Part shown: one piece after another, positions 23,496-55,986 of the stretch
Layout of the letters: each line of letters opens with the position of its first letter
How positions within the stretch are numbered: position 1 is the first letter of the stretch
Source of the DNA: an uncultured Acidobacteriota bacterium
GTDB taxonomy: Bacteria > Acidobacteriota > Polarisedimenticolia > J045
Direction: 5' to 3'
Length of the DNA: 64,000 nt
Assembly (NCBI GenBank): GCA_963702425.1
Contig: CAVPCQ010000029.1
Span: 20,593 to 84,592 of the forward strand
Translations under genes and position numbers: made by a program
Notes under the pieces: generated by a model
The model's input: only the letters and a program-made list of their open reading frames with translations
Databases searched by the model: none
What the model was told of the DNA's origin: nothing

Positions 23496-25883
23496 ATGAG
23501 CGTTGCGAACTTCCCGGCCGGCGTCCCGCGCCGTTCCGCGGCCCCGGTCAAGTCCTGGTGGCTGCGCCTGGTGGACGCGATCGGCAGCGTGACCTTCGGC
23601 ATCTCGATGATGGTCGCCCTGCTGGTCTACTCGTGGCTCGGATCGGCCGGCCTGCAGCCGTTCTACGACTGGTTCCCGCGCCAGAGCGTCGAGCTGACCG
23701 AGATGGAGTGGTTCAACTGGTGGCCGTTCCACCTGATCTGCGCGCTACTCGCGCTCTCGCTGGTTCTCGTCACGATCCGCCGCATCCCGCTCAACCTGCC
23801 GAACCTCGGCGTCTGGACGGTCCACGTCGGGATCCTCGTGCTGATGCTCGGCTGCGTGATCTACTTCGGGCTCAAGCGCGAAGGGGACATGGCGGTCTTC
23901 CGTCGGCAGGCGATCGTGCAGCTGCCGGGCGGTTCGCCGGTCGTGCTGACGCTGCAGCCTGACGAGGAAGCGATCGTGAGCGGCAACGGCCGCGCATACC
24001 GCGTCACGGTCGGCGACCTCAACTCCAGCTACGAGCTGCTCACCGGGACCGACAAGGGTAAGAAGACCCTCTCCGCGCAGCTCGGCTTCCAGCCGCTGTC
24101 GGGCGGTGGGCAGCCCTTCATCCGCCAGCTGCTCGTGGGCTACCCCGAATACACGGAGGACGTCGTCCCCGGCCAGGGGCGCGCGATCAAGCTGCTCGGC
24201 CGGAAGCTGATTGACGACAGCGTGGCGGTCTCGCTCGACTACGCGCCGAACGACCGGATCTTCCTCTACGACCGTGCGGCGCTGATGCTGCGCATGCCGG
24301 GGACCGCCGAGTGGAGCGAATATCCCTTGCGTGGCTTGCCGCGCTACCGGGAGTACGTCGGGTCACCGGATGCCGCGTCCGTCAGCCCGGGCGAGACGCC
24401 GCTGCCCGCGCGCCCGCTGGCCCTCGCACCGCGCCTCAAGGGGACCCCGGCCCCGGGGTTGGAGCAGGTCTCCGCGCGCGTCACGGGCTTCCTCCCCTAC
24501 GCGATGCTCAGCGAGGCGTGGGAAGCCGGCGGTACGGCCTTCAACCCGTACCTGCGCTTCACGGTCCAGGTCGGCAACAGCTCGATGTCCGAGGTCCTGC
24601 TGGCCAACGACCCGGCCCGCAACCACGTGAGGCTCGGCGACAACCTCTTCGACGCGCGCTTCGACTGGGTCGACGACCCGGCCGTGCTCGAGCGGCTCCG
24701 CAGCCCCGGCGCGCCCCGCCTGCGCGCCCGCGCCGGCGCGACCGAGCACGAGTTCCCGCTGGGCGAGGTCGTCGGCAGGGAGTTCGCGCTCGCCGGCACG
24801 CCCTACACGCTGCAGGGGCTCCAGTTCTTTCCGGAGTGGGTCCCGCCCGGCACGCCCGAGGGGGAGCACGGCTCGATGGTGCTGGTCCGCGTGAAGGGCC
24901 CGAAGGGGACCTTCCTGCGCGCGGTCACCGCACCCGACGCGCGGCTCACGCGGGACCTCGACGGCGAGGGGCGCCCGCTCGCGGCGCTGGTCGACGACGG
25001 CATCGTGCTCGAAGCGGGCGGCCTCGTGGAATCCGGGCTGCGGATCGTGGGCGGACGGAACGGCCTCATCGCGCTGCTCGTCAGCGACGGCGGGCAGGTG
25101 ATCGAGCGGCCGCTGACGCCTGGCCAGCCGGTCGAGTTCCTGGACGGCGCGATGAAGCTGACCGTCTGGGAGGCCGGTCCCAACTCGCGCCTGGTGTCTA
25201 AGCCGCGCGTCGTGCCGCGGCACGAGCGGGACTCCAAGTCCGGGCCCCACTACTCGCTGATCCAGGTCGAGTTGGCCGAGGCGGGTCAGCCGCCGGAAAC
25301 GCAGTGGGTCGAGTACAGCCACTACGCGCACCCGAGCCGCGTCGGCTACTACCCGCGCCGCGTGACGCTCGCTTCCGGTCGGCCGGTCGAGCTGCTCTAC
25401 TCGCGCGAGACGCTTCGGCTCCCGGCGCCGGTCGCGCTCGAGGAGTTCCAGCTCGAGGTCTACCCCGGCGGCGAGAAGGAGCGCGACTACAAGAGCCTCG
25501 TGCGCTTCTACGAGAACGGCCGCTGGTCCGACCTGGAAGAGGTCCACAGCAACAACCCGACCGAGCACGCCGGGTGGTGGTACTTCCAGAGCACGTGGGA
25601 CCCGCCCGACGAGCGAGCCGGCTACGCGGGGATGAACTACACCGGGCTCGGGGTCGGCAACCGGCACGGGGTGGGCACGATGCTGCTGGGCTCGGTGCTG
25701 ACCGTGCTCGGCACGCTCTGGGCCTTCTACGTGAAGCCGGTCATCGTGCGCCGGCGGCTCGGCGAGCACCGCGCGGAGATCGCCGGCGCGCCGGAGGACC
25801 TGCCCGACACCACGCGCTTCCCGGCGCAGCCGGCGGCCGCATCCGGCGCCGCGCGCACCCGACTCACGGAGACCGAAGCATGA
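23496..25883 (+). CDS. Cytochrome c biogenesis protein ResB/Ccs1-like (system II)
   Basis: Three N-terminal TMs incl. VHVG, large periplasmic domain, NNP...FQSTW and C-terminal TM; adjacent to ccsA. Confidence 0.8.
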   Translation: MSVANFPAGVPRRSAAPVKSWWLRLVDAIGSVTFGISMMVALLVYSWLGSAGLQPFYDWFPRQSVELTEMEWFNWWPFHLICALLALSLVLVTIRRIPLNLPNLGVWTVHVGILVLMLGCVIYFGLKREGDMAVFRRQAIVQLPGGSPVVLTLQPDEEAIVSGNGRAYRVTVGDLNSSYELLTGTDKGKKTLSAQLGFQPLSGGGQPFIRQLLVGYPEYTEDVVPGQGRAIKLLGRKLIDDSVAVSLDYAPNDRIFLYDRAALMLRMPGTAEWSEYPLRGLPRYREYVGSPDAASVSPGETPLPARPLALAPRLKGTPAPGLEQVSARVTGFLPYAMLSEAWEAGGTAFNPYLRFTVQVGNSSMSEVLLANDPARNHVRLGDNLFDARFDWVDDPAVLERLRSPGAPRLRARAGATEHEFPLGEVVGREFALAGTPYTLQGLQFFPEWVPPGTPEGEHGSMVLVRVKGPKGTFLRAVTAPDARLTRDLDGEGRPLAALVDDGIVLEAGGLVESGLRIVGGRNGLIALLVSDGGQVIERPLTPGQPVEFLDGAMKLTVWEAGPNSRLVSKPRVVPRHERDSKSGPHYSLIQVELAEAGQPPETQWVEYSHYAHPSRVGYYPRRVTLASGRPVELLYSRETLRLPAPVALEEFQLEVYPGGEKERDYKSLVRFYENGRWSDLEEVHSNNPTEHAGWWYFQSTWDPPDERAGYAGMNYTGLGVGNRHGVGTMLLGSVLTVLGTLWAFYVKPVIVRRRLGEHRAEIAGAPEDLPDTTRFPAQPAAASGAARTRLTETEA

Positions 25884-27670
25884 GCCGCCGCCTGGTGATC
25901 GCCTTCCTCGCCGTCCTGGCGCTGGGCACCGCGGCCGCTCCGGCGCGGGCTGCCGACGCGCCGATCCAGCTCTCGGTCGGCAGCGCGTTCGCGGACTCCG
26001 TCGACCTGGCGGCGATCCGCGTCAGCGCGGTCCAGGAGGACGGCCGCGTCAAGACTTTCGACTCGCTGGCCCGCGAGCGGCTGAAGCTGGTCAACAGCTC
26101 GCGCGCGATGCGCGAGATCGACCCGGTGCTGCTCTACCTGGACATGGTCCTGGTCCCCGAGCACTACGCCGGCACGAACGTCATCTTCGTCAAGAAGCCG
26201 ATGATCCGGACGCAGATCACGCAGGGCGTGCGCAGCATCGTGCTGCCCGAGAACCGCCAGGGCGTGATCGCTGAGACCGAGCTGCAGCGGATCGAGCAGA
26301 CCGGGCTGGTGTCGCCGATCTTCCTCGACCAGCCCGCGGTCCGGCAGGTGCTCGCGGCAATGGAGCGCGACCTGATGCGCACCAGCCGCGAGGTCAACGC
26401 GATTCAGGCCGCCCGCAGCCTGTCCGACGCGGGCGTGCTGTTGTCGCTCTGGCGCCCGGTGCCGCCGGTCGGGGGCAGCGAGACCGATCCCTGGCTGACG
26501 GTGGCGCAGGCCGCCCGCGGGATGATGAGCGCGCCGGGGCGCGCGATCCCGGCCGCGACCGGGCTCGCCGAGCGGAGCGCGGCGATCGGCGCAGCCTGGC
26601 AGTCGCTCGAGAACGCCTGGCGCTTCCAGGACGCCGCGGCCGCCGGCCAGGCGCTCAACACGCTGGCGCAGACCTTCGCGCTGGTGGAGCCGAGGCTCTA
26701 TCCGGCGGCGGCGCGCCTGTCGTGGGAGCACTGGTACTACAAGAACGACAAGCTGACGATGGTCTGGCTGGTCTATTTCCTGGCCCTGCCGTTCCTGCTG
26801 ATGGCCACGGTCTACCGGTTCCGCTGGGCGCGGGTCGCCGGGCTGACGCTCTTCGTCACCGGCTTCGCGCTCCAGACCTTCTCGATCGTCCTGCGCTGGT
26901 GGCTGGCCGGGCGGATCCCGAACTCCAACATGTTCGAGGCGGTGACCGCCTCGGCGTGGTTCGGCGCGCTGCTGGCGATCGTGCTGGAGCTCGTCCTGCG
27001 GCGCTGGCCGGTCAAGAACCTGCCCGCGCTCGCGGCCTCCACCTATGCGATGTTCGCGCTGATGCTCGGGCACTTCATGCCGGTCACGCTCAACTCCGAC
27101 ATCTCCACCGTCATGCCGGTGCTCGACCGCACGATCTGGCTCTACATCCACACCAACATGGTCATCGCCTCGTATGCGCTGATCTTCTTCGGCGGGGTGA
27201 CGGCGATCCTCTATCTCGCGGGCCGGGCGCTGAACTCGTGGGCGACGTCGCCGCGCCTCGCCGAGGCCTGGGCCGGCACCGGCGGCACCGGGGCGATCCG
27301 TGGCGGCGCGGGCTCCCTGATCCTCGGGCGCGGCCTGGCCCCCGGCGACGAGAACCGCTCGGGGCTGGCCAAGTCGCTCGACGGCGCGACGATGATCTTC
27401 CTCGAGCTGGCCTTCATCACGCTCTGGGTCGGGACGATCCTCGGCGCGGTCTGGGCCTACTTCTCGTGGGGCCGTCCGTGGGGCTGGGATCCCAAGGAGG
27501 TCTTCGCGCTCAACACCTGGCTGGTCTTCCTGGTGCTGTTGCACGTCCGCTACAAGGTCAAGGACAAGGCGCTCTGGACCGCGATCCTGGCGGTGATCGG
27601 CTGCGCGGTGATGATCTTCAACTGGGTCGCCGTCAACTTCGTGATCGTCGGCCTGCACAGCTACGCGTAG
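25880..27670 (+). CDS. ccsA: Cytochrome c biogenesis protein CcsA/ResC with N-terminal periplasmic domain
   Basis: WWD motif WGRPWGWDPKE, WLYIH, LLHVR, terminal GLHSYA. Confidence 0.92.
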   Translation: MSRRLVIAFLAVLALGTAAAPARAADAPIQLSVGSAFADSVDLAAIRVSAVQEDGRVKTFDSLARERLKLVNSSRAMREIDPVLLYLDMVLVPEHYAGTNVIFVKKPMIRTQITQGVRSIVLPENRQGVIAETELQRIEQTGLVSPIFLDQPAVRQVLAAMERDLMRTSREVNAIQAARSLSDAGVLLSLWRPVPPVGGSETDPWLTVAQAARGMMSAPGRAIPAATGLAERSAAIGAAWQSLENAWRFQDAAAAGQALNTLAQTFALVEPRLYPAAARLSWEHWYYKNDKLTMVWLVYFLALPFLLMATVYRFRWARVAGLTLFVTGFALQTFSIVLRWWLAGRIPNSNMFEAVTASAWFGALLAIVLELVLRRWPVKNLPALAASTYAMFALMLGHFMPVTLNSDISTVMPVLDRTIWLYIHTNMVIASYALIFFGGVTAILYLAGRALNSWATSPRLAEAWAGTGGTGAIRGGAGSLILGRGLAPGDENRSGLAKSLDGATMIFLELAFITLWVGTILGAVWAYFSWGRPWGWDPKEVFALNTWLVFLVLLHVRYKVKDKALWTAILAVIGCAVMIFNWVAVNFVIVGLHSYA

Positions 27671-27792: not shown

Positions 27793-30144
27793 ATGGCGGT
27801 GACGACGCAAGAACCCCACGATCCCGAGTCCAGCCGGAAGCGTATCGAGGAGGCGCTCGAAGCGTTTCCGGGGCTCGCGGAGATGTTCGCGCGCGCGCTG
27901 ATGGTAAGCCTGCACGCGCGCGGGGTAGCGACGGTCGACGAGATCTACGCCGAAGCACGCCGCCGGGCCGGCGGGGCGGGCGAGGACGAGCCGACGGACC
28001 TCTCCGACGACAACGTGCAAGTTGCCCGGCGCTGGGACGAACTCGAGCGCCGGGAGATCGAGAACCTCACCGTCGAGAAGGCCGCCGCGACTTTCACGCC
28101 GGACGAGATTGACGACCTCGTCAACCTGACCCGAAAACGCGACGAGGCCCAGAGCCTGGAGGAGATCGCGAATCTCTCGCAGGTGTCGATCCGCATGCTC
28201 GCCGAGGCTGTCAACCGGTTCTGCCGCTTTCCCGAGGGGCAGACGCAGATCCCCGAGTGGGAGTCGCTCGGGGTCCGCGTGGCGCTGATCCGTCACATCA
28301 TCTCTGACCAGCTCGAGTTCATCGGTCTCGCCAAGAAGCACTTCCGGATTCGTGACTTCCAGGATCTCCTCGAGCGGACCATCGGCGATGACCACCGCAT
28401 GGGCCGGATCGGCGGCAAGGCGGCCGGGATGATCCTCGCCAAGAGCATCCTCGAGCGCGCGCGCGCGGAGGATCCCAGCGCCCCCCAGATCCCGATCGCG
28501 CTCCCAGATTCCTACTACCTGCGCTCGGACGTCATCGAGCAGTTCATGGATCACAACCAGCTCCATGAGCTGCAGAGCCAGAAGTACAAGCCGATCGAGA
28601 CGATCCGCCAGGAATACCCGGTCATCCTGAACCTCTTCAAGAACGGCGAGTTCCCGGGTCACCTGATTGAGAAGTTGCGGCGGTTGCTCGGCAAGGTGGG
28701 TGACTCGCCGCTGATCGTGCGCTCCTCGTCGCTGCTCGAGGACCGCTTCGGCGCCACCTTCGCGGGGAAGTATCGCAGCGTCTTCCTTCCGAACCAGGGA
28801 CCACACGAGGGCCGCCTCGTCCAGTTGATCGGCGCGATCTGCGAGGTCTTCGCAAGCATCTTCGCCCCCGACCCGATCAGCTACCGGCGCCGCCACAACC
28901 TGATCGACTACGACGACCTCATGGCGGTACTGATCCAGACGGTTGTCGGGCTGCGCTACGGCCCGTATCTGCTGCCGAGCTGGGCCGGTGTGGCGTTCTC
29001 CAGCAACGAGTACCGCTGGAGCGCCAGGATCCGCCGCCAGGACGGGCTGGCCCGCGTCGTCTTCGGGCTCGGAACCCGCGCCGTGGACCGTGTCGCCTCG
29101 GACTTTCCGCGGATGCTCGCGCTCGGCATGCCGTCGCTGCGGCCGGTCGCCAGCCCGGCCGAGATCCGGCGCTACTCGCAGCGCTACGTCGACGCGATCA
29201 ACATCGAAGAGAACCGCTTCGAGACCGTCCCGTTCACCGAGTTGCTCTCGCACGGTTCGTTCCCGGGCCTCGACCAGTTCGTGTCGATCTCCGGGGAGGA
29301 CGGCTTCTACAAGCCCACTGGCACACGGATCGACGCAGCGCCATCGGAGCTGGTCCTGACGTTCGACCGCTTCGCTCAGGAGTCGCCCTACCCGGCGTTC
29401 CTGAAGTGGATGCTGACCACACTCGAGAGGGCCTACGGCTGCCCGATGGACATCGAGTTCGCCCACGACGGCGAGAAATTTCACCTCTTGCAGTGCCGGC
29501 CCCAGGCCTGGCACGAGGAGGAGCGCGCGGTCTACATCCCGCGCAACATCCCCTCCGAGCGCCGGGTCTTCAGCGCGTCGCGTAACATCACCACCGGCTC
29601 CGTGCACGGGATCCAGTACGTCGTCCTCGTCGATCCGCGCGACTACGATTCGATCCAGACGGCGACTGAGCGGCAGCAGGTGGCACGCGTGATCGGACTG
29701 CTCAACGAGGAGCTCAAGGAGAAGGGCTTCATCCTGATGGGACCGGGGCGCTGGGGGTCGAACGACCTGCGGCTGGGGATCAAGATCGGTTACGCCGACA
29801 TCAACAACGCACGGATGCTGATCGAGATTGCGCGCGCGAAGGGGGATCAGGTCCCAGAAGTGTCGTTCGGAACGCACTTCTTCCAAGACCTCGTGGAGTC
29901 GGATATCCGCTACCTGGCGCTCTACCCCGACGATCCGGGCAGCGACTTCAACGAGCGCTTCCTCCACGGCTCTACCAACATGCTTCCGCAGTTTCTGCCG
30001 GAGCAGGCCGAGTGGGCGGGGGTCGTGAAGGTCGTGGATGTGCGGCGCGCCAGCGATGGCCTGTCACTCAACGTGGACATGGACGGCGACAGCCAGCAGG
30101 CGCTCGCGTACCTCGCTCCGGCAGACGACGCGCACCACCACTGA
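27793..30144 (+). CDS. PEP synthase/PPDK N-terminal (ATP-grasp) domain protein, paralogue 1
   Basis: IGGKAAG, IVRSSSLLED, FAGKYRS, GLGTRAVD, DIEFA, LLQCRP, GPGRWG, SFGTHFFQD; ATG at 27793. Confidence 0.85.
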   Translation: MAVTTQEPHDPESSRKRIEEALEAFPGLAEMFARALMVSLHARGVATVDEIYAEARRRAGGAGEDEPTDLSDDNVQVARRWDELERREIENLTVEKAAATFTPDEIDDLVNLTRKRDEAQSLEEIANLSQVSIRMLAEAVNRFCRFPEGQTQIPEWESLGVRVALIRHIISDQLEFIGLAKKHFRIRDFQDLLERTIGDDHRMGRIGGKAAGMILAKSILERARAEDPSAPQIPIALPDSYYLRSDVIEQFMDHNQLHELQSQKYKPIETIRQEYPVILNLFKNGEFPGHLIEKLRRLLGKVGDSPLIVRSSSLLEDRFGATFAGKYRSVFLPNQGPHEGRLVQLIGAICEVFASIFAPDPISYRRRHNLIDYDDLMAVLIQTVVGLRYGPYLLPSWAGVAFSSNEYRWSARIRRQDGLARVVFGLGTRAVDRVASDFPRMLALGMPSLRPVASPAEIRRYSQRYVDAINIEENRFETVPFTELLSHGSFPGLDQFVSISGEDGFYKPTGTRIDAAPSELVLTFDRFAQESPYPAFLKWMLTTLERAYGCPMDIEFAHDGEKFHLLQCRPQAWHEEERAVYIPRNIPSERRVFSASRNITTGSVHGIQYVVLVDPRDYDSIQTATERQQVARVIGLLNEELKEKGFILMGPGRWGSNDLRLGIKIGYADINNARMLIEIARAKGDQVPEVSFGTHFFQDLVESDIRYLALYPDDPGSDFNERFLHGSTNMLPQFLPEQAEWAGVVKVVDVRRASDGLSLNVDMDGDSQQALAYLAPADDAHHH

Positions 30145-30201
30145 CGGATCGACGGCGCGACACGAGGCGCGCGGCGACCGGTCCGGAGGCAAGGGGCACC
30201 C

Positions 30202-31038
30202 GTGACGCGCTGCGCGTTCGTTTCGGATCTTCACGGCCGCGAGGCGCGGTATCAGGCGCTCTTCCGCTTCCTGTCCGATGCGCAGCCCGACGCGCTGTTC
30301 CTGGGAGGCGACCTGTTGCCGCGCGGTGCCAGCGCAGAGCGCTTCCTCGACGACCTGCTGGAGCCCGCCCTTCGGTCCGTCGGGGCCTCTGCCGACGACA
30401 GGACGCGCGTCTTCCTGCTGCTCGGGAACGACGACCCGGCGATCTACGAGGATGCCGCGCGCCGCGGCGAGGAACGCGGGGCGTGGACCTATCTCCACGC
30501 GCGTCGTGCGCGGCTCGCGGGCCGGGCGGTCTACGGTTACGCCTGCGTCCCGCCGACGCCATTCCTGTTGAAGGACTGGGAGCGATACGACGTCTCGCGT
30601 CATACCGATCCCGGTTGCGTGTCGCCGGAAGCGGGGCGGCGTACCGTGCCGGTCGCGGAGAACGAGGTGCGCCACGGAACGATCGCCAAGGATCTTGACC
30701 GTCTGGCGGGAGGCGATGACCTGTCCGGCTCGGTCTGGCTGTTCCACTCTCCGCCGTGGAACTCACGTCTCGATCGCGCAGCGCTCGACGGGATGACCGT
30801 CGCGGGCGTGCCGCTCGACCTTCACGTCGGGAGCGTCGCGATCCGCCGCTTCCTCGAGCGTCACGCCGTGCACCTGGCGCTCCACGGCCACGTCCACGAG
30901 TCGGCACGACTCACCGGCGCGTGGTGCGACCTGGTGGGGCCGACGACCTGCCTGTCCGCGGCGCACGACGGGCCAGAGCTGGCCGTGGTGCAATTCGACC
31001 TCGAGGCGCCCGGGGAAGCGACCCGCGCGCTGCTCTGA
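30202..31038 (+). CDS. Calcineurin-like metallophosphoesterase
   Basis: SDLHG, GGDL, GNDD, HSPP, HGHVHE motifs. Confidence 0.9.
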   Translation: MTRCAFVSDLHGREARYQALFRFLSDAQPDALFLGGDLLPRGASAERFLDDLLEPALRSVGASADDRTRVFLLLGNDDPAIYEDAARRGEERGAWTYLHARRARLAGRAVYGYACVPPTPFLLKDWERYDVSRHTDPGCVSPEAGRRTVPVAENEVRHGTIAKDLDRLAGGDDLSGSVWLFHSPPWNSRLDRAALDGMTVAGVPLDLHVGSVAIRRFLERHAVHLALHGHVHESARLTGAWCDLVGPTTCLSAAHDGPELAVVQFDLEAPGEATRALL

Positions 31039-31064
31039 GATGCCCCGGCTGCGTGACGGACCCG

Positions 31065-34000
31065 TCAGAGGGGCCGCGCGGCGTCGGTCACCGCGCCGAT
31101 CTTCACAGCGAAGCTGGTCCCCCGCGCGATGTCGTCGTCGGTGACCAGGTGGACGTCGAGCAGCCCGTTCGAGCGGTAGCCCGTGCGCAGGAAGTTCATC
31201 TCGTCGAGCGCACGGCTCCAGCCGTCCAGCCAGAGGCGGAGCGCGTCGATCTGCTCGGTCGAGGCCCGGTGGTGGACGAGCAGGTCGATGTCGCTGGCCG
31301 GCCCTGCGGTCGCATTCTTCGTGCTGCCGATCAGGTAGACCTTCACGACACCGAACCGTTCCAGGTCCAGCTCGCTCGCGATCCGCTGCGCCATCGCCAG
31401 TCGCCAGCGCCAGTGTGGTTCCGAGGCTCTTTCGCCACGTCCGGACGGCTCCTCTTCCGAGGCCGAAGTGGTTGCCGGCGAGGTCAGGTAGGCGACGGCA
31501 CTGTCGAGTGCGGCGTTCATCAGGACGCGCGCGACGAGCCCGCCCGACGAGGCCGGAACGTCGATCACGCGGAGCACCCCGGCGAGGTGGGCGTACTCGG
31601 GGAGAATGCCGGCCAGGAGGTTGTCGGCGGCGTGCAGCCAGCGCTCGTTGAAAACGGCCCCCTCGTCGTCCGGATAGAGCGGCAGGTAGCGGATCCGCGC
31701 CTCGACGAGATCCTGGAAGAAGTGCGTCCCGAACGACAGGTCCGGCGCGTAGCCATCACGCCGGCGTGCCACCTCGACCAGCAAGGCGCAGTGCGAGATG
31801 TCGGAATAGGAGACGCTGACGCCCAGCTTGATATCGCCGCGGCTGCCCCAGCGGCCGGGTCCGATCAGCGCGAACTGCCGCTTGGGGAGCAGTTGGTTCA
31901 GGCGGCCGACCGCACGGCCGATCGCCAGCAGATCGGCCCTGTCCTGGACCTGGGTGTAGGCCGCAGCATCGACGTAGACGAGGTGCGTCAGGTCGGGTAC
32001 GCGGCCGTTCGACACGAAGCGATTCGCGGTGAACAGGACCCGCTCCGTGGGGAGGTCCTGCGGGATCGGCGAGGGGCGACTCTCGTCGGTGTCGCTCTGC
32101 GGGCGGCACTGGAGCAGGTAGATGTCCGTTCCGTCCGACGCGAACTCGATGTCCACCGGGACGCCCAGCGCGCGCTCCAGCGTCTCGAGAACCGCCCTCA
32201 TCTCGCCCAGGAACGGCGTGTCGGAAATCAGCCCCTCGAACGTCCAGACCAGATCTTCGCGCTCGAAGTCGACGCGGGTCCCCAGCGGCTTGCGCACATG
32301 CCCTGCGCTGTGCAGGGAGACCATGCGCGCCACCCCGGGTACCGCAGCGCCGTACTCGCGCAGGAGCGCGTCCACTCGGACCGTCTCGAAGCGATTGGTC
32401 TCGAGATTCAGCACGTCGAGCTTGCGCGGGGCGTAGTGCAGGACCTCGTCCGGCGTGCTGTTGGTGCGTAACCCCGGCTGGCCGGGCGCCACGAGCACCG
32501 GATAGTCGTCGGCCAGGCGATCGACCGCCCGGGTCCCGAGCCCCGGGACCAGCCGCAGCAGGCCGTCCTCGCGCCGGATCCGCGGCGACCAGCGAAACTC
32601 GTTGCGTGAGAATCCCACACCGGCGAAGGTCGGAGCGAAGTAGGGACCGATCCGCGTCCCCACCACCTCCTGGATCATGATGCCCATCTCCTCCTGGAAG
32701 TCGGACAGGCCGCGCTCCATGCGGTACTGGATCGGGTCGGGGCCGAAAGTCGAGGCGTAGACCTCGGCGACCGCGCCGGCGAGCGCCGCGAGGCGCTCCC
32801 CCTTGGCCCCCTGGTTGGCCAGGAAGAGGCTCTTGTACTTGCCCGGGAAGGCTGAGCCGGCGTGGTCCTCGAGCAGGCTCGAGCTGCGCACGATCACCGG
32901 GTGCTCGCCGACCTCGTCGAGCACCTGCGCGAGACCCCGCACGATCTCGGGAGGGAAGGGGCAGCTCTTGAAGGTATCGATGATGTGTGAGTACTCGAGC
33001 CGAACCTGGTTGATCTCCTTGTACTTCTGCTCCACGACGTCGTCGAGGTGGTTGTAGTGGATGAAGTCGAGAAGCACGTCGGAGGTGATGTACCACGTCC
33101 GCGGGACCCGGATGCGTCCCAGCGCCGGGATCTCGGCCGCCGCGCGATCGAGCACCTTTGCGGCCAGGAAGAGCCCGGCGCTCTTGCCGCCCAGCTTCCC
33201 CTGGCTCGCGCTCGTGAAGATCGTTCCCTGCAGCAGGCGGAAGAAGTCCTCGACCTCGAGGTAGCGCTTGGCGACATTGAGGTACTCGAGGTGCTCGGTG
33301 AAGAAGCGTCGTGCCAGAGCGACGATGACACTGCGCTCGGATGACTCCGGCAGCCTGGCCCCCTCCGGCGTCAGCTGGTGGTACCGGCGCAGCGCATCGG
33401 CGACCTCGGGCAGCGGGTGGTTGCGGTTGACGACCGCCTCCACCAGGAAGCTGAGCTTGTCGTTCTGGATCAGCCGCTGCAGGTACGCGAGCGTCTCGTC
33501 GTCGCCGAGATGGCTTGCCGCCAGCTCGACGATCCGGGTGCCGGTGGCGTCGTCGACCACCGAGAGCACGCGGCCGGTATCGGGACGATTCTCGTCGCGC
33601 TCCGTCCCGGCCTCGTCCGCGGGGACCCCCTCCCCCAGCTGGGCGCGCAGCTGCTCCGCCTCCTTGACCCCGCTCCAGCACAGGTGGTTGAGCACCTTGA
33701 GCGCGATCGAGCGGAACAGCGCGCGGTCCGTCTCGCGCAGCAGGTCAAGCACCACGCGCCACGCTACCTGGCGCTGCGCGGAGAGGTCCGCGCTCGCGAT
33801 CTCGACGCCCTGGAGCACGTGCTTCATCCGCGCGAACATCACGAAGAAGCCGAGGCGCTCCGCGATCGTGGCGATCAGCTTGGTCTCCTCGGCGAGGAAG
33901 GGCCCTTCGTCCGCCGGTGGGGCGCTGCGGGTGTAGCCGACCGTCAGGTCGCCGAGGTGCTGCCCGTGTACGTGGATGTCGGCCCGCTGCTGCCACGGGG

Positions 34001-34235
34001 TCTCGGCCCAGTTGTCCGTCCGGTAGACGCTGTCCTCGAACTGCACCCGCGCGGCGCACCAGTCGGGAAACTGCCAGCCTGGCGGGATCGCGTTCACCAC
34101 GGCGTGGAAGATGTCGTCGAGCGGGATCTCCGGGTGCGCGAGAATCTCCTCGATCCGGTACAGGCACTGGAGTTCCTTGTGGCGCTCGCGCAGAAACCAG
34201 ATCAGCTTGTCCAGCGGCGGCTCGGGTCCAGTCAT
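31065..34235 (-). CDS. PPDK-N-like paralogue 2 with N-terminal GAF-like region and C-terminal nucleotidyltransferase domain
   Basis: LRERHKELQCLY..IPPGWQFP..GPFLAEE N-terminus; RSSSLLED, GPGRWG, SFGTHFFQD; C-terminal YLIGS...SDIDLLV. Confidence 0.85.
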   Translation of the reverse strand: MTGPEPPLDKLIWFLRERHKELQCLYRIEEILAHPEIPLDDIFHAVVNAIPPGWQFPDWCAARVQFEDSVYRTDNWAETPWQQRADIHVHGQHLGDLTVGYTRSAPPADEGPFLAEETKLIATIAERLGFFVMFARMKHVLQGVEIASADLSAQRQVAWRVVLDLLRETDRALFRSIALKVLNHLCWSGVKEAEQLRAQLGEGVPADEAGTERDENRPDTGRVLSVVDDATGTRIVELAASHLGDDETLAYLQRLIQNDKLSFLVEAVVNRNHPLPEVADALRRYHQLTPEGARLPESSERSVIVALARRFFTEHLEYLNVAKRYLEVEDFFRLLQGTIFTSASQGKLGGKSAGLFLAAKVLDRAAAEIPALGRIRVPRTWYITSDVLLDFIHYNHLDDVVEQKYKEINQVRLEYSHIIDTFKSCPFPPEIVRGLAQVLDEVGEHPVIVRSSSLLEDHAGSAFPGKYKSLFLANQGAKGERLAALAGAVAEVYASTFGPDPIQYRMERGLSDFQEEMGIMIQEVVGTRIGPYFAPTFAGVGFSRNEFRWSPRIRREDGLLRLVPGLGTRAVDRLADDYPVLVAPGQPGLRTNSTPDEVLHYAPRKLDVLNLETNRFETVRVDALLREYGAAVPGVARMVSLHSAGHVRKPLGTRVDFEREDLVWTFEGLISDTPFLGEMRAVLETLERALGVPVDIEFASDGTDIYLLQCRPQSDTDESRPSPIPQDLPTERVLFTANRFVSNGRVPDLTHLVYVDAAAYTQVQDRADLLAIGRAVGRLNQLLPKRQFALIGPGRWGSRGDIKLGVSVSYSDISHCALLVEVARRRDGYAPDLSFGTHFFQDLVEARIRYLPLYPDDEGAVFNERWLHAADNLLAGILPEYAHLAGVLRVIDVPASSGGLVARVLMNAALDSAVAYLTSPATTSASEEEPSGRGERASEPHWRWRLAMAQRIASELDLERFGVVKVYLIGSTKNATAGPASDIDLLVHHRASTEQIDALRLWLDGWSRALDEMNFLRTGYRSNGLLDVHLVTDDDIARGTSFAVKIGAVTDAARPL

Positions 34236-35953
34236 CGGCGAATCACCCCCTGGCCGGTTCGCCCGTCGACGCGGATCGCCAACGGTGCGGGAAGTCGGAT
34301 CCAGCGCAGCCGCGCCGTCTCGCGCAGCGCGGGCTGCGCGTCGAGCCAGTCCCAGTCGATGCTTCCGTCGGTCGCGGAGAAATAGAGCACGCGGAAGCTG
34401 GTGACATTGTGGAAGAAGTGCGCTCCCTGGCTCGGCCGGAACGCCATCCCTGGCAGCATCGCCTCGACGATCACGCGCGCCCCCGAGATCTGTGCGAACG
34501 CGACCGGGACGCCGCCTGCCGGGTCGGAGGTTCCCCAGCGGCCGAAGCCGACGAGCAGGTAAGGCCGGCCGGCGGCCAGCAACTCCTGGTTCAACGCGTC
34601 GAGTTCCTGCGCGATGCCGGGCGTATCGCCGGCCTCGAACGCCTCGCGCCGAACGACGACCACGTCGGCAACGTCCGGCGCCGCACCGTTGCCCAGCACA
34701 CCGTGCGCGGCGAGCAGCAACCCGGCCGGCTCGAGATCCGCGGCCGAGATCTCGACGCGCTCCGCCGAGACCATCATCGGCCGCACCTGCAGGAGGCCCA
34801 GCCGTGCAGCGGACCCGCCTTCCGGGTCGAGCGTGAAAGCCAGTTCGATCTCGACGTCAATGGCGAATTCGGCTCGCGCGGCGTCGAGCAGGGCGACGAC
34901 GGCGTCGCTGAACGGGAGCATGCGCGTCTGCCGCAGTGGTGCGAAGTCGAGCATCCGCGGCCCCGGGCGCGAGATCCCGGGGACGAGGCGGTCATCCGCG
35001 GCGAGGTATGTCGACGCCGTCCAGGTCAGCGTGCCGTCGCTCTCGGCTGCGGCGAGGTCGGCCTGGACGAGGAACTCGGTCTCGTGCGTCGGGTCGTACG
35101 CGGGGGGCTTTCCCATGTTGACGGCCCAGAACGCCGTTTGCCCCTCTTTCACCAGGGCGCGCAGCGAGGTGTAGGGAGGGGCCGTACGGGGGTAGCGCGG
35201 GCAGTAGGCCCATCCCACGCCGTCGTCGACGATCGTGCGGCCCAGCCCGAGTGCCAGTTCCGCGACGCCATCGTCCGGCTTCGCGTGCCCCGACGGATAG
35301 AAGTTGAAAGACCGTCCGACGGCGGAGACGTCGGGGTAGAAACGCTCTCCGTGACGGCGCCCGACCACTTCCTGGACGATCACGGCCATCCGTTCTTCGG
35401 TCGGGTCGCGGCGCGTGGCAGCGATGTACTGGCGCGCGTCCCGGAACCACGTCGACGCGAAGACGAGCTTGATCGCCTCGACCAGTCCGCGGAAGCGTGA
35501 CGCCGCGTCCGGCTGGTTGTTGGCGATCATCTTCGTGGCGTAGACGCCGGCGAACGGCTGCTCGAGCGCGTCCTCGAGCAGGCTCGACGAGCGGACGGCG
35601 AGCGGCGCTCTCGCCTCCGTCGCAAGCGCCTGCAGGTCGCCCAGCAGATCGGTCGGGAGCCGGCCGCGCTGGAAGGCCATCGCGATCACGTCGTCCCGCT
35701 CGTCGCGCAACCCGGCGACCGCGTCCAAGCCGTTCAGCTCGAGGAAGCGCTCGAAGCAGTCGGCGGCGAGGACCGTCATCCGCGGGATCGAGATCTCGAG
35801 CCCTTCCGGGGCGAACCGCTCGGCCAGCGAGGCGACGACCCGCTGCGCGCGCACGAGTCCCGAGGCCTTTCCGCCCAAGGGGCCGTCGCCCAGCCGCGTG
35901 ATCGCCGGACCGCGGAGGAACCCCCCTCGGGACAGGCGCGGAATTCCGTCCAC
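34232..35953 (-). CDS. PPDK-N-like paralogue 3 (core only); start 35953 or 36004
   Basis: LGGKASGL, AVRSSSLLED, PFAGVY, ALGLGRTIVD, LLQVRP, GRWGTSD, SQGAHFFHN. Confidence 0.85.
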   Translation of the reverse strand: MDGIPRLSRGGFLRGPAITRLGDGPLGGKASGLVRAQRVVASLAERFAPEGLEISIPRMTVLAADCFERFLELNGLDAVAGLRDERDDVIAMAFQRGRLPTDLLGDLQALATEARAPLAVRSSSLLEDALEQPFAGVYATKMIANNQPDAASRFRGLVEAIKLVFASTWFRDARQYIAATRRDPTEERMAVIVQEVVGRRHGERFYPDVSAVGRSFNFYPSGHAKPDDGVAELALGLGRTIVDDGVGWAYCPRYPRTAPPYTSLRALVKEGQTAFWAVNMGKPPAYDPTHETEFLVQADLAAAESDGTLTWTASTYLAADDRLVPGISRPGPRMLDFAPLRQTRMLPFSDAVVALLDAARAEFAIDVEIELAFTLDPEGGSAARLGLLQVRPMMVSAERVEISAADLEPAGLLLAAHGVLGNGAAPDVADVVVVRREAFEAGDTPGIAQELDALNQELLAAGRPYLLVGFGRWGTSDPAGGVPVAFAQISGARVIVEAMLPGMAFRPSQGAHFFHNVTSFRVLYFSATDGSIDWDWLDAQPALRETARLRWIRLPAPLAIRVDGRTGQGVIRR

Positions 35954-35969
35954 TGGCCGGCCCCCGTTC

Positions 35970-37277
35970 TCAGGCCCAGCCGCGCTCGCGGCAGGCCTCG
36001 GCAACGCGCGCCACGGCGATGACCAGCGCTGCCTCGCGCAACGGCAGCCGATCGCGGCGCGCCGCTGCGAATACCGCGTGCGCGGCGGTCGTCATCCGGG
36101 TGTCGAGCCGCGCCAGCACCTCGTCCTTCTCCCAGTAGAAGTTCGCGTTGCTCTGCACCTGCTCGAAGTAGCTGCAGGTGACGCCGCCGGAGTTCGCCAG
36201 CGCATCGGGGATCACGGTGACCCCCCGTTCGGCGAGCACGGCGCCGGCCTCGGCCGAGGTCGGCGCATCGGCTCCCTCGAGCACGAAGCGCACCGCCGGA
36301 TGGACCTTGGCGACGTTCTCCGCCGTCAGCTGGTTCTCGATCGCGGCCGGGATCAGCACGTCCACTGGCTGCTCGAGCCACGCGGCGCCCGGGAGCAGTT
36401 CATATCCCAGGTCCCGCGCCGCGTCGCGATCGATGGATCCGAAACGATCGGCGACGCCGCGCAGCACCGCCAGGTCCACCCCCTGCTCACGACGGAAGCA
36501 GACCGCCTCGCCGGCGGCCTGGTCCCAGCACGACACCGCGAGGACCTTGCCGCCGACCTGTGTCAGCAGTTCGATCGCGTGCTGGGCGACGTTCCCGAAC
36601 CCCTGCACGCTGGCGGCGACGTTCCGGATCGGCTGCCCCAACTCGGCCAGGGCCTCGCGCAGCACGAAGACCAGCCCGTATCCGGCGGCCTCGGTCCGAC
36701 CGAGCGAGCCTCCCAGCGCGACCGGCTTGCCGGTGATGAACCCCGGATCGCGCCGCCCGGCCATCGTCTCGTACTCGTCGAGCATCCAGAGCATGTGGGG
36801 CGCGCCGGTCATGATGTCGGGCGCGGCGACATCGACCCGCGGGCCGAGCTCGCGGAACAACGCACGCACCCAGCCGCGGCAGAGCCGCTGCAGCTCCGCT
36901 GCCGACAGGTCGTGCGGGTCGCAGGCTACCCCGCCGTGGCTGCCGCCGAGCGGGATGTCCACGATCGCGCTCTTCCACGACATCCCCATCGCCAGCGCGC
37001 GCGCGGCGTCGAGCGACTCCTGTGGGTGGAAACGGATTCCCCCCTTGGCCGGACCGCGCGCGTCGTTGTGCTGGACGCGGAAACCGCGGAAGACGCGCGT
37101 CCGGCCGTCGTCCATGGCGACCGGAACCGCGAACCGGTGCTCGCGCAGCGGCCAGCGCAGCAGTTCGCGGAGCGACTCGTCGAGGCCGAGGAAGGTCGCA
37201 ACCCGGTCGAACTGGTCCTGCGCGGCGTGGAAGAACTGGTAGGGTGCCGGATGTCCGTCGCTCATGGCCGTATCCAT
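35970..37277 (-). CDS. Glu/Leu/Phe/Val dehydrogenase family protein lacking canonical catalytic Lys
   Basis: KGGIRFHP, APD, ITGKP, QGFGNV, NSGGV; GGSHGG in place of GGGKGG. Confidence 0.85.
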   Translation of the reverse strand: MDTAMSDGHPAPYQFFHAAQDQFDRVATFLGLDESLRELLRWPLREHRFAVPVAMDDGRTRVFRGFRVQHNDARGPAKGGIRFHPQESLDAARALAMGMSWKSAIVDIPLGGSHGGVACDPHDLSAAELQRLCRGWVRALFRELGPRVDVAAPDIMTGAPHMLWMLDEYETMAGRRDPGFITGKPVALGGSLGRTEAAGYGLVFVLREALAELGQPIRNVAASVQGFGNVAQHAIELLTQVGGKVLAVSCWDQAAGEAVCFRREQGVDLAVLRGVADRFGSIDRDAARDLGYELLPGAAWLEQPVDVLIPAAIENQLTAENVAKVHPAVRFVLEGADAPTSAEAGAVLAERGVTVIPDALANSGGVTCSYFEQVQSNANFYWEKDEVLARLDTRMTTAAHAVFAAARRDRLPLREAALVIAVARVAEACRERGWA

Positions 37278-37321
37278 CCTCCGCCAGGGCGAACCCGCCG
37301 GTCGCTTACCAGACAGGGTAG

Positions 37322-38839
<1,518 letters not shown>

Positions 38840-38867
38840 TCGCTGGCTTGGGAAGGCTCGTGGGGGG

Positions 38868-38899
38868 GGGGCGGCCGGCGACGGCCGCCCCTTCTCTTT
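38868..38899 (+). terminator. Intrinsic terminator after gdhA
   Basis: GGGGCGGCCG-GCGA-CGGCCGCCCC followed by TTCTCTTT. Confidence 0.75.
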
Positions 38900-38902
38900 G
38901 CG

Positions 38903-41878
38903 TCAAGGCTTCAGGATCACGCCGCGCCCCGAGCGCCCGTCGATCCGCACGTCGAGCGGGTCGCCGAGCCGCACGTGGCGCAGGTACGCGGTCTCGGTCT
39001 CCGCGCGGTGAGCCGCCAGCCAGTCGAAGTCCACGAACCCGCTTCCGCGGCGCTGATGGACGGTCAGGTAACCGGTGCCGAAGGACGTGATGTTGTGGAA
39101 GAAGTGGCTTCCCTCCGACGGCGTCACCTCGACGTCGTCGAGGTCGGTCTCGATGATCGCGCGTGCCCCGGCGATCATCCGCCACTCGACCGGGATCCCC
39201 AGCCAGTTGTCCGAAGTTCCCCAGCGGCCGGGTCCGATCAACAGGTAGGGGCGATTCTCCGCGACCAGCCGGCGATTGATCGTCTCGACCTCGCGCGCGA
39301 TGTCGACCGTCCGGGCGCGGTCGAACGCCTCTCCCCGGATGTAGACGATGTCCCGGATCTCGGCCACGTGCCCGCGGCCGAGAGCCTGCGGCGAGTCGCA
39401 GAGCACCGCCTCGCGGCCGCTGTTCTCGAGCAGCCGGTCGATGTCGTCGGATCCGACATCGACCACCAGCGGCCGGATCTGCAGGACGCCGAACTCCGCC
39501 GGCTCGTCCGTCGTTTCGGGCAGGTTGACCGCGAACTCGATCTCGACCGGGCAGCTCATCGCCTGCTGGCCGAGCGCGAGAAGTGTCCGCAACACCGCGG
39601 CCAGCGGGAAGAGCCGCATCCGGAGGATCGGGTCGAAGGTGACGACGCGGATCCCGGCCCGGCCGACGCCGGGGTAGAAGGCGTCGTCGTCGCGCGAGTA
39701 GGTCGAGGCGACGCGGCCGAGCGTGCCGTCGCGCTCGGCGTGTGCGAGATCGAGGCGCACCAGGGCATCCTCATGCGTCCGGTCGGGGAAGTCGGCCCCG
39801 GCTGACATGTCCAGCGCCCAGAACTGGCGCTGCGAGCTCTTCAGCGTGTTGGCGGTCCCGGCGAACTGCAGCACGGCGCGCGGCGCGCCGGGGGAGAAGC
39901 GCACGGCTCGGCCGCCGTCCACGACCGTGCGCCCCAGCCCCAGCGCCACCGCCGCGACGCCATCCTCCGGCTCGAGCCCGAGCATCGGGTAGTAGTTGTA
40001 GGACTGCGCCACGCCGGCGAAGTCGGGATAGAAGTGCGTGCCGCGCGCGCGCCCCACGAGCTGCTGCACGACGACCGCCATCTTCTCCTCTTCGACGCGG
40101 TGGGGGGTCTGCTGCAGGTAGGCCTTGGAGCTCCACGAGTAGGTCGAGGCGTAGACCAGTTTGATCGCGCCGGCGAGCTGCCGCAGGCGCACCTCCGGGT
40201 CGTCCGCGTTGTTGGCCAACATGATCGTCCGGAAGATTCCGGCGAACGGCTGGTCGTGCGAGTCCTCGAGCAGGCTCGAGGAGCGGACCGCGAGCGGGTA
40301 GCGCGCCGTCTCGAGGAAGGCGACGAGGTCCCGTTCGATCGGCGGGGGGAGCGGCGCGGCGAGAAACGCGGCCTCGATCTCCTCGTCCGGCGCGTCGGAG
40401 AAGGCCAGCCGTCCCAGCCCCGGGGTCTGCATGAACTCGCCGAACACCCCGGTCCCCAGCACCGTCGTCGGCGGCACGAACAGGCGCACCCCGGGCGGGA
40501 CGTGCCCCTCGCGCTGCCGCCCGAGCAACGAGTGGATGAACCCCAGGCCGCGCCCCTTCCCCCCCATCGAGCCGCTCCCGAGCCGGCTGAACGCCTCGGC
40601 GTCGGCCGGCGCCTGCCGCGCGAAGTCGGCGACGACGCCACGGCGCGTCTCGGCCAGCAGGCCCGAGAAGGCCTCGATCAGGTACCGACGCAGCGCGTCC
40701 GTGCTCTCGAACTCCGACACCTTGCGCGGGCGGAACCGGGCGGCCAGCGCGAACTCCGTGCGCGCCATGCACCAGTTCGAGAAGTGGTTGCGCGAGGCGT
40801 GATAGCGCAGCGACGCCTCGGGGACCTGCGCCAGCGCGCCGGGCATCGCAGCCAGGTCCTTGACGCGCAGCAACTCGTGGCCGGTCGGCGGGTCGACGAA
40901 TACGAAATCGCCGAAGCCGAGGTTCCGGCGGATGAAGTGGCGCAACTCCTCGAGCAGTCGCGGCGAGCGCTTGCTCGAGAAGCCCGCCCCCAGCGCGAGG
41001 GCCTTCTCGCGCAGGCCGGCGTCGGAGGACTGCACCAGGACCGGGAGGTCGGGGACAGCCTGGCGGACCTGCCGCAGCAGTTCGATCCCCGCCTCGGGAT
41101 CGGACCGCCCGCCGCGCGGGAAGCGGGCGTCGGTGATGATCCCCAGGATCGAGGGCCGGTAGCGCTCGAACAGGTCGCGGGCCTCCTCGAACGTCTCCGC
41201 CAGCAGGATCTTCGGCCGCGCCCGCATCCGCCGCAGCCGCTCGCGCGCGTTGACGCCGTCGGCCAGCAGCGCCTGCCCCTGCGCGACCAGCTCGGTGTAG
41301 AGCATCGGCAGGTACGAGGAGTAGAAGCGCACCGAGTTCTCGACCAGCAGGATCATCCGCACGCCGGCGAGGGCGATGTCGCGCTCGGTGTTCCGCTGGT
41401 CTTCGATGTACTTGACGATCGCCAGGAACAGCGCCACGTCGCCGCGCCAGACGAACACCTGGTCGACCGCGGGCGGACCGGGCTGCGCCTTGACGCGGTG
41501 CGCCTCGCGCTGGTTGTCGGCGAGCATCACGACCGGCAAGTCGGGGAAGCGGGCCTTCACCTGCTCGCTGAACTGCCGGACCTCCATCCCGCCGAGCCGG
41601 GCCATCGTGATGACCAGGTCGAACGGCCGAGCTTCGAGCAGCGCGAGCGCCTCCTCGGCCGTCGCGGCCAGCGTGATGCGCGGCGCGAAGCTCAGCTTCA
41701 GCTCGTAGAACTCGGCGTCGAGGCTCTCGGAGAGCTGCCCGTCCTCTTCGAGGATGAACGAGTCGTAGAGGCTGGCGACCAGCAGGACCTCGTGGACCCG
41801 GAACGCCATCAGCTGGCGGAAGACCGCCTCTTCGGGGTCGATCTCGTGCGCCGTCCGTCCGAGGGGTTCCTCGCTCAT
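38903..41878 (-). CDS. PPDK-N-like paralogue 4 with N-terminal receiver-like domains
   Basis: Receiver-like segments (PFDLVIT; GIITDARFP..AGIELL..PVLVQS), HFSNW segment, MGGKGRGL, RSSSLLED, GPGRWG, SEGSHFFHN; ATG at 41878. Confidence 0.85.
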   Translation of the reverse strand: MSEEPLGRTAHEIDPEEAVFRQLMAFRVHEVLLVASLYDSFILEEDGQLSESLDAEFYELKLSFAPRITLAATAEEALALLEARPFDLVITMARLGGMEVRQFSEQVKARFPDLPVVMLADNQREAHRVKAQPGPPAVDQVFVWRGDVALFLAIVKYIEDQRNTERDIALAGVRMILLVENSVRFYSSYLPMLYTELVAQGQALLADGVNARERLRRMRARPKILLAETFEEARDLFERYRPSILGIITDARFPRGGRSDPEAGIELLRQVRQAVPDLPVLVQSSDAGLREKALALGAGFSSKRSPRLLEELRHFIRRNLGFGDFVFVDPPTGHELLRVKDLAAMPGALAQVPEASLRYHASRNHFSNWCMARTEFALAARFRPRKVSEFESTDALRRYLIEAFSGLLAETRRGVVADFARQAPADAEAFSRLGSGSMGGKGRGLGFIHSLLGRQREGHVPPGVRLFVPPTTVLGTGVFGEFMQTPGLGRLAFSDAPDEEIEAAFLAAPLPPPIERDLVAFLETARYPLAVRSSSLLEDSHDQPFAGIFRTIMLANNADDPEVRLRQLAGAIKLVYASTYSWSSKAYLQQTPHRVEEEKMAVVVQQLVGRARGTHFYPDFAGVAQSYNYYPMLGLEPEDGVAAVALGLGRTVVDGGRAVRFSPGAPRAVLQFAGTANTLKSSQRQFWALDMSAGADFPDRTHEDALVRLDLAHAERDGTLGRVASTYSRDDDAFYPGVGRAGIRVVTFDPILRMRLFPLAAVLRTLLALGQQAMSCPVEIEFAVNLPETTDEPAEFGVLQIRPLVVDVGSDDIDRLLENSGREAVLCDSPQALGRGHVAEIRDIVYIRGEAFDRARTVDIAREVETINRRLVAENRPYLLIGPGRWGTSDNWLGIPVEWRMIAGARAIIETDLDDVEVTPSEGSHFFHNITSFGTGYLTVHQRRGSGFVDFDWLAAHRAETETAYLRHVRLGDPLDVRIDGRSGRGVILKP

Positions 41879-53862: not shown

Positions 53863-54294
53863 ATCCTCCACTTTTCGAACTTCCGGCGGGGCGGTTAACG
53901 GGGAAGGTGTGTTCGGGGGGCGGCCGGGGGGCCGGAGAGGCGCGAGGGGGCGCGGGGAGGCGGGCGCCGGTCGGCGGGCGACGGCTCTCTGCGGGCTGCC
54001 TGGACGCGAGGCCGGCTGAGGCTCCTGTCGGCGCCGGGGCTGGAGCGCTCTCTTCCTCTCTGCGATAGTCGAGAGAGCCGTGCACCGGCGCATCGCCCGT
54101 TTCCGCGTCCTCGCGGGTTGCGAGGCGAGAGCCCACCCGGGAATGCGCATCGCCGTGAAGCGGGGACCTCGCCGAATCATTGAAAGACGGCATGGAGACC
54201 ACCACCACGCTTGGCTTCCCAACCGTGGCAGGCGTGCTACTCCACGTCTTGACCCCGCTCACCAACAAAGGCCCACGCCGCCAGCCGGAGTGAC

Positions 54295-55962: not shown

Positions 55963-55986
55963 CGCTACGCCTCTCCCGCGATCACG

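Follow-up and report, generated by a model that had tools for sequence, protein, structure and literature searches.

Half-dikinase genes beside glutamate dehydrogenase genes in many phyla suggest a possible ATP-driven control system

Why should four genes for proteins resembling pyruvate phosphate dikinase (PPDK) and phosphoenolpyruvate (PEP) synthase surround two genes for glutamate dehydrogenase (GDH), the enzyme where carbon and nitrogen metabolism meet? The question is raised by positions 27,793 to 41,878 of a 64,000-nucleotide stretch of contig CAVPCQ010000029.1 (assembly GCA_963702425.1, an uncultured Acidobacteriota bacterium), which we call the window and whose numbering is used throughout. 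The dikinase-like proteins, here named A, B, C, and D, each contain an ATP-grasp domain (PPDK_N) and a second domain of about 170 amino acids, the C-dom, which is common to all four and carries the motifs GRWG and SxGxHFF. They are half-dikinases, composed of a nucleotide domain and a putative, much-diverged swivel domain without an acceptor domain, and their arrangement with GDH genes across many phyla suggests that GDH is subject to a so far uncharacterised control that is driven by ATP. The genes of the locus are as follows, with family matches and E-values from Pfam.

27793-30144, + strand: A, 783 amino acids, ATG start and TGA stop; a B-type half-dikinase with an N-terminal region of about 200 amino acids without a family, PPDK_N (residues 205-581, E 3.4e-52), and a C-dom with SFGTHFF (His695), without a nucleotidyltransferase.
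30202-31038, + strand: PE, a 278-amino-acid calcineurin-like metallophosphoesterase (Metallophos, E 2.5e-12, profile positions 2-190 of 191), downstream of A and convergent with B.
31065-34235, - strand: B, 1056 amino acids; a putative N-terminal sensor region of about 345 amino acids (33201-34235), PPDK_N (about 32052-33197, E 4.5e-58), a C-dom with GRWG and SFGTHFF (31467-32060, His838), and a minimal nucleotidyltransferase (31068-31490; NTP_transf_2, E 2.8e-06).
34232-36004, - strand: C, an open reading frame (ORF) of 590 amino acids from a TTG at 36004; a minimal half-dikinase of PPDK_N (residues 43-416, E 2.4e-25) and C-dom (34235-34747, His529 in ORF numbering) only.
35970-37277, - strand: GDH2, 435 amino acids, with ELFV_dehydrog and ELFV_dehydrog_N; first gene of the GDH2-C-B operon.
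37493-38839, + strand: gdhA, a 448-amino-acid NADP-type GDH with GGGKGG intact, divergent from GDH2 and convergent with D.
38903-41878, - strand: D, a 991-amino-acid response-regulator half-dikinase (Response_reg, E 3.2e-09; PPDK_N, E 8.3e-34), with a pseudo-receiver and a canonical receiver (within 40574-41878), a weak DUF5752-like linker, PPDK_N, and a C-dom (38918-39433, His925).

PPDK_N was matched in A, B, C, and D with E-values ranging from 2.4e-25 to 4.5e-58, and the motifs GGK, RSSSLLED, [DE]IE[FL]A, LQxRP, GRWG, and SxGxHFF were found in each of them with the expected spacing, which bears out the four ATP-grasp dikinase-like paralogues described in a first-pass annotation of this DNA. 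The same annotation had found them to lack the T-S/C-H-A-A motif and the PEP/pyruvate barrel, and this held as well: Pfam gave no match to PF00391 (the mobile His domain) or PF02896 (the PEP/pyruvate barrel) in any of the four, nor did any of them match the regular expression [TS][SC]H[AT]A. The C-dom, said to end all four proteins, does so in A, C, and D; B contains it too, but terminates with a nucleotidyltransferase (NTase). Two subtypes with two copies each had been proposed, and both motif variants and identities agree with this: A and B share SFGTHFFQD and are 42% identical, whereas the variant S[QE]G[AS]HFFHN is found in C and D, whose identity to A is 27-28%. Scores against the NCBIfam equivalogs for PEP synthase, PPDK, rifampin phosphotransferase (RPH), and PigC were 14-61 bits, with cut-offs of 456-1700. 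The genome contains five PPDK_N genes, namely A-D and one canonical PPDK on another contig, which carries GGMTSHAALVARG and in which the motif GGMTSHAA is present. Since the PEP/pyruvate domain is absent from A-D and a canonical PPDK is found elsewhere in the genome, A-D are not metabolic PEP synthases or PPDKs, in agreement with what had first been supposed.

The ATP-grasp part is recognizable in structure as well. An AlphaFold model of full-length C (pLDDT 85.7) had as its best Foldseek matches RPH (5hv3, E 6.1e-12), HpeI, PEP synthase, and PPDK, a likeness that resides in the ATP-grasp part. Among full-length orthologues of B, the motifs GGK, RSS..ED, and S.G.HFF were kept in 54 of 54, and the motifs of C were kept in 76-79 of its 79 orthologues. 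Three proteins, P0121-P0123, are fusions of C and B (1523-1654 amino acids) with two C-doms each, and with two PPDK_N domains in P0121, on which Pfam was run; these were the three best representatives in the C-dom profile search.

Enrichment beside gdh genes had been set beforehand as a test of the association, and it was found for both C and D. For C, the best 80 loci with a relative of this protein (44-55% identity) were taken, and a flank of at least 1.5 kb was required for neighbour counts. Their titles name Acidobacteriota, Gemmatimonadota, Planctomycetota, Ignavibacteriota, Bacteroidota, Calditrichota, Zixiibacteriota, Eisenbacteria, Chloroflexota, Spirochaetota, and others. In 64 of 69 loci, the gene immediately before C, and on its strand, is a GDH2 orthologue (>50% identity); of the remaining five loci, two have GDH2 at another place. 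The gene immediately after C is a B orthologue in 69 of 74. For D, 40 loci were taken from 103 genomes with a match, with 19 kb excised around each. A gdhA-type gene (61-79% identity) was found no more than 9 kb from D in 34 of these 40 loci. In 27 of them it comes immediately before D on the same strand, less than 700 nt away; in 2 it is divergent, and in 5 it is placed otherwise. It was absent in 6 (L111, L112, L113, L119, L132, and L134). Such synteny across phyla excludes a chance association. The window comprises two modules, GDH2-C-B(-PE) and gdhA-D, together with A, a lineage-specific paralogue of B.

GDH2, C, and B belong to a single operon. The stop codon of C and the ATG start of B overlap as ATGA (34232-34235), and the likely start of C is a GTG at 35953, 16 nt past the GDH2 stop, which gives a protein of 573 amino acids, the length of the 95%-identical P0001; this overlap and spacing suggest translational coupling along GDH2-C-B. 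PE orthologues occur within 5.2 kb after B in 38 of the 57 loci with enough flank, and PE is the last gene of gdhA-D operons in some loci (e.g., L050, L069, L124, L138, and L139). Besides PE, clustering of ORFs from the 80 C loci and 40 D loci showed no further conserved neighbour; this clustering was crude, as it used stop-to-stop ORFs and single linkage, and GDH2, C, B, and D fell into one cluster. The next cluster was a family of about 585 amino acids some 5.7 kb upstream of C, found in 11 of 80 loci (e.g., L003, 4305-5927, - strand). In two D loci, a B/A-like gene without NTase lies between D and gdhA (L117, 10464-13202; L148, 11919-14204), indicating that A-type paralogues arise in other lineages too.

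The family is large and has been given only general names. C has at least 7941 homologues, for which public labels are PF01326 only or hypothetical, and the family is publicly annotated as "hypothetical", "PEP/pyruvate-binding domain-containing protein", or "pyruvate phosphate dikinase-like enzyme". A profile of the C-dom retrieved 2427 representatives of clusters at 50% identity (E<=0.001). Among 301 sampled genomes of the phylum of the window, 145 encode the C-dom, in 1-5 copies each, and 103 the receiver region of D.

In an alignment of 42 C-doms from all four subtypes (A3), the invariant positions are a Gly near the start, L..G.GR(W)G..D...G, a Glu, and S.G.HFF; in an AlphaFold model of the domain (pLDDT 93.9), the invariant His is located at the N-terminus of a helix that follows a strand-loop. 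Exhaustive comparison by VIA-align placed the phosphoryl-carrier domain of PPDK at the top (2fm4, Z 8.0, root-mean-square deviation 3.5, 114 of 128 residues), followed by the PEP-utilizer-like C-domain of Bacillus pyruvate kinase (2e28, Z 7.2), and also found the His domain of RPH (5hv1 756-865, Z 7.2), maize PPDK (1vbg 386-510, Z 7.1), and Enzyme I (Z 6.2-6.5). The C-dom directly follows PPDK_N in all of 8 diverse proteins; in C, the last residue of PPDK_N is 416 and the C-dom starts near 425. Judged by these best matches, the modelled fold is most like that of the swivelling phospho-His domain of PPDK and RPH. We trust this match because the top rows come from one family, the whole domain is covered, and the domain is located straight after the ATP-grasp. 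As the secondary structure elements correspond one to one in order over the 114 of 128 residues, the invariant His is predicted to be in register with the carrier His of PPDK, on the helix after the fourth strand. By sequence the C-dom is not a member of PF00391; the comparison to the swivelling His domain, proposed earlier as a check, thus favours a likeness of predicted fold and not of sequence profile. A forced local alignment by hhalign, in which the canonical His loop falls in a gap, gave a register that we set aside, since it is at odds with the structural alignment. Searched against PDB sequences, the C-dom profile returned VAMP7 longin domains (E 0.01-0.027) and otherwise E-values above 0.3, which were treated as chance.

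The domains added to this common core differ between the proteins. Receiver-like domains had been reported, and D indeed contains two, of which only the second keeps the phospho-acceptor residues: in an alignment of 40 sequences, its vED, isD..fP..G, lqS, and F..K.S are conserved, corresponding to the acidic pair, acceptor Asp, Ser, and Lys, while the acceptor Asp of the first is not conserved. The DUF5752-like stretch between the receivers and PPDK_N is weak in D (E 0.093) and reaches 1e-4 to 1e-5 in P0140 and P0208. The nucleotidyltransferase seen at first in one of the proteins is that of B, whose tail alone matches NTP_transf_2 (E 2.1e-07) and is of the Pol-beta type; 51 of 54 full-length orthologues retain its motif G[ST]..DxD (G-[ST]-x(6-16)-D-x-D). 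By contrast, the GAF-like region that had been proposed was not confirmed in B, as residues 1-345 matched no Pfam family at E<=1, and the Protein Atlas gave their own family and a weak lead (a cluster with score 0.80, 20% of whose members have GAF). The N-terminal region of A likewise gave nothing in Pfam at E<=1. A search of PE against PDB sequences gave nothing below E 0.1. PADLOC returned only generic matches to the NTase and the metallophosphoesterase, and hence no sign of a defence system.

The two GDH genes differ in their catalytic residues. gdhA scored 779.9 bits against NCBIfam NF006929 (cut-off 536), and GDH2 scored 378.5 bits against GdhA_Arch, under the cut-off of 750; the best solved relatives of GDH2 are GDHs (E 1e-105), and it falls in the hexameric class of about 420 amino acids. 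gdhA and 60 of 69 GDH2 orthologues read GG[GAS]KGG (alignment A5), the Lys of which we take to be the catalytic Lys of GDH. GDH2 of the window reads GGSHGG, with His114 (codon 36936-36938) at the Lys position, and its EGAN motif is replaced by EGAD. Its description in the first-pass annotation as a pseudo-GDH is therefore supported, the ELFV_dehydrog fold being present and the Lys lost. In the nine orthologues without this Lys (9/69), the residue is M, E, S, N, T, A, or Q, and two of these nine, those of L041 and L059, also lack the Lys of the KGG (KGG.RFH) motif, although they are full-length ORFs in intact operons. In a FastTree phylogeny of 70 sequences, the non-Lys state requires 4-5 changes, and supported branches account for at least 3 of these; GDH2 of the window is placed, with support, in a clade of 7 rows that includes 6 non-Lys ones. 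The motifs of C and B are retained where the Lys of GDH2 is lost, so their function is independent of GDH2 catalysis.

From these data, we tentatively propose that A-D are half-dikinases under sensor control, which phosphorylate themselves at the conserved His and act on GDH in a way similar to the mycobacterial regulator VadK, a proposal to which we assign somewhat less than an even chance. The ATP-grasp domain would split ATP and transfer a phosphoryl group onto the conserved His, after which the loaded domain would act on the partner GDH hexamer and alter its activity, either by transfer of the phosphate to GDH or by phosphorylation-dependent binding. Input may be received through the receiver of D in the gdhA-D module and through the N-terminal region of B in the GDH2-C-B module; the NTase of B might provide a second modification, and PE would be the likely reversing enzyme. 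GDH2 of this genome, without the catalytic Lys, would probably be a regulatory or adaptor subunit beside the active gdhA, as GdhA is in Thermus. We infer this biochemistry from architecture, fold, and synteny. Of the sensor control that had been suggested earlier, the receivers of D and the NTase of B stand, and the GAF assignment does not.

VadK (Rv1127c; PMC13400623) is described as a truncated PPDK of mycobacteria that autophosphorylates on His422, pulls down methylcitrate synthase and dehydratase, and tunes flux through the methylcitrate cycle. VadK resembles the half-dikinases in having an ATP-grasp and a His swivel domain without PEP/pyruvate domain, in its regulatory rather than metabolic role, and in having a central metabolic enzyme as partner, the swivel domain, the role, and the partner being putative for A-D; likewise, His autophosphorylation is demonstrated for VadK and predicted for A-D. 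Unlike the C-dom, which is unrecognisable by sequence, about 50 residues longer, and marked by the invariant GRWG..D and SxGxHFF, the His domain of VadK is a canonical PEP-utilizer domain. The half-dikinases further differ in their partner, GDH, which is proposed from synteny alone, in their additional receiver, N-terminal, and NTase domains and their paralogue pairs (C and B), and in the very different phyla in which the family is found. Against NCBIfam PRK05878 (short PPDK), A scores 20.5 bits with a cut-off of 456, so the VadK type and A are not the same sequence family. The original comparison to GlnD and GlnE stays a functional analogy: these are sensor-coupled nucleotidyltransferases that modify a nitrogen-assimilation enzyme or regulator, and B has an NTase of the Pol-beta type, but only the generic NTase fold is common to them, and the dikinase module has no counterpart there. 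VadK, as a truncated-PPDK regulatory kinase, is the closer precedent (PMC13400623).

A number of observations weigh against the proposal of GDH control by half-dikinases. The Z-scores of 7-8 by which the C-dom was matched lie in a range that VIA-align calls common; Foldseek with the C-dom model gave nothing at E<=0.001, the first row being the phosphoryl-carrier domain of PPDK at E 0.097; and hhalign of the C-dom profile against 28 canonical PEP-utilizer domains (A4) returned a probability of 0.3%. PE, cast earlier as the eraser and here a putative one, is convergent to B and outside its operon, is found in only 38 of the 57 loci with enough flank, and occurs in few loci of the gdhA-D module. 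Loss of the GDH2 Lys appeared tied to a nearby gdhA (within 10 kb in 6 of 9 non-Lys loci versus 6 of 60 Lys loci, naive Fisher p 5e-4), but with only 2-4 phylogenetically independent contrasts this is a hint, and it loses significance on the tree. None of the 5 longer relatives of GDH2 contains PPDK_N, so no GDH-dikinase fusion was found, which is weak evidence. Finally, the characterised dikinases of this family known to us, RPH among them and VadK aside, phosphorylate small molecules or glucans. A complex prediction for GDH2 and residues 30-590 of C (alignments A5 and A2) scored 0.00, with a mark of 0.32, and was used neither way.

A possible and only somewhat less probable alternative is that A-D are small-molecule dikinases, in which the His-phosphate would be passed to a compound that takes part in the GDH reaction (2-oxoglutarate, glutamate, an intermediate, or the coenzyme), free or bound to GDH, to give a phosphorylated metabolite or signal, with GDH supplying or holding the substrate. 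The best-characterised relatives among the Foldseek matches of C, namely RPH, HpeI, and PEP synthase, act on small molecules, the best NCBIfam matches of C are the prodigiosin ligases PigC (E 2e-12) and RedH (3e-11), far below cut-off, and 2-oxoglutarate is an alpha-keto acid, like pyruvate. Moreover, the GDH proteins are the only conserved partners, and split dikinases with a separate substrate-binding protein are known, an example being HpeHI (PMC12167813). The full-length model of C matches both RPH and the split dikinase (5hv3, as above; 9goj, E 1.1e-09), in which the ATP-grasp and His module is reused for new acceptors and the acceptor site can be on another domain or protein. C differs from RPH in having no rifampin-binding-type domain between the end of the ATP-grasp at residue 416 and the C-dom, and the half-dikinases score 14-40 bits against the RPH family NF041857 (cut-off 999). 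Against this alternative, neither a substrate-binding domain nor a further pathway enzyme is conserved nearby in the C and D loci, and the operon is kept despite the loss of the Lys at position 114 of GDH2, and likewise in L041 and L059 without their KGG Lys. The receiver and putative sensor domains fused to these enzymes speak against it as well, since such fusions are more typical of signalling enzymes.

A third reading is that A-D regulate GDH by binding alone, as energy-charge sensors that bind adenine nucleotides and perhaps autophosphorylate. A regulatory precedent is found in Thermus thermophilus (PMC9570180), where the GDH hetero-hexamer consists of GdhA, a catalytically inactive paralogue that serves as regulatory subunit, beside the active GdhB, and an inactive homologue of APRT, an enzyme-derived accessory protein, confers activation by AMP and so links GDH to adenine nucleotides. 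GDH2 is of the same class of about 420 amino acids (3aoe, E 1.3e-92); the accessory proteins, however, are unrelated, and 60 of the 69 GDH2 orthologues keep the catalytic Lys. The working model for VadK is likewise competition for binding of the target enzyme (PMC13400623), and each GDH type is paired one to one with its own partner. Nevertheless, the ATP-grasp motifs and His loop are nearly universally retained in B and C, as is the NTase motif of B, which argues for chemistry rather than binding alone; we consider this explanation unlikely. Least probable by far is that A-D are ordinary PEP synthase or PPDK isozymes that stand beside gdh by descent and are functionally uncoupled from it. Their PPDK_N matches and their public annotation as PEP/pyruvate-binding or PPDK-like proteins would be in line with this, and PPDK and PEP synthase (PF01326, PF00391, and PF02896) share with them a homologous ATP-grasp, the domain order, and probably the fold class of the second domain. 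However, this reading is rejected on domain content, as they lack the PEP/pyruvate barrel and PF00391; they score 16-61 bits against the NCBIfam families for PEP synthase and PPDK (cut-offs 456-1063); a canonical PPDK is encoded elsewhere in the genome; and synteny with GDH is kept across many phyla at 45-56% protein identity.

One further reading, quite improbable in our estimate, takes the GDH hexamer as the missing third domain of the dikinase, provided in trans. The swivel His-phosphate would dock onto GDH and phosphorylate a ligand in its active site; for example, the carbonyl of 2-oxoglutarate could be activated for attack by ammonia. It is suggested by GDH being the only conserved partner, by the absent acceptor domain, and by the PigC-like chemistry of relatives; in PigC, phosphorylation of the carbonyl oxygen drives condensation. 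Were this reading true, GDH would become an ATP-coupled, high-affinity machine for ammonium assimilation, switched on via the receiver of D.

The limits first set for the cluster were borne out, as the flanking genes are of unrelated function and encode, among others, cytochrome c assembly proteins, a DPP-IV-type peptidase, and an amidase. Genes for ResB-like and CcsA-like cytochrome c assembly proteins lie directly upstream of A (23496-27670). The G+C content of the window is about 70%, at which long spurious ORFs are common, and genes were chosen by their family matches; the CcsA ORF, for instance, is overlapped by long spurious ORFs on both strands, which is typical at this G+C. Positions 54001-62000 have a G+C fraction of 0.61-0.65, compared with 0.69-0.79 elsewhere, and may represent an acquired segment.

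To our knowledge, the control of GDH is essentially uncharted in Acidobacteriota, Gemmatimonadota, Planctomycetota, Bacteroidota, Ignavibacteriota, and other environmental phyla, and nothing that links the C-dom family to GDH was found in the papers covered by our literature searches. If the proposed control of GDH by half-dikinases is true, the use of truncated dikinases as regulators of metabolic enzymes, so far described for a single case in actinobacteria, would be extended to a sensor-coupled system that is widespread. The target enzyme would then have been named from genomics alone, which makes the hypothesis directly testable with a few purified proteins.

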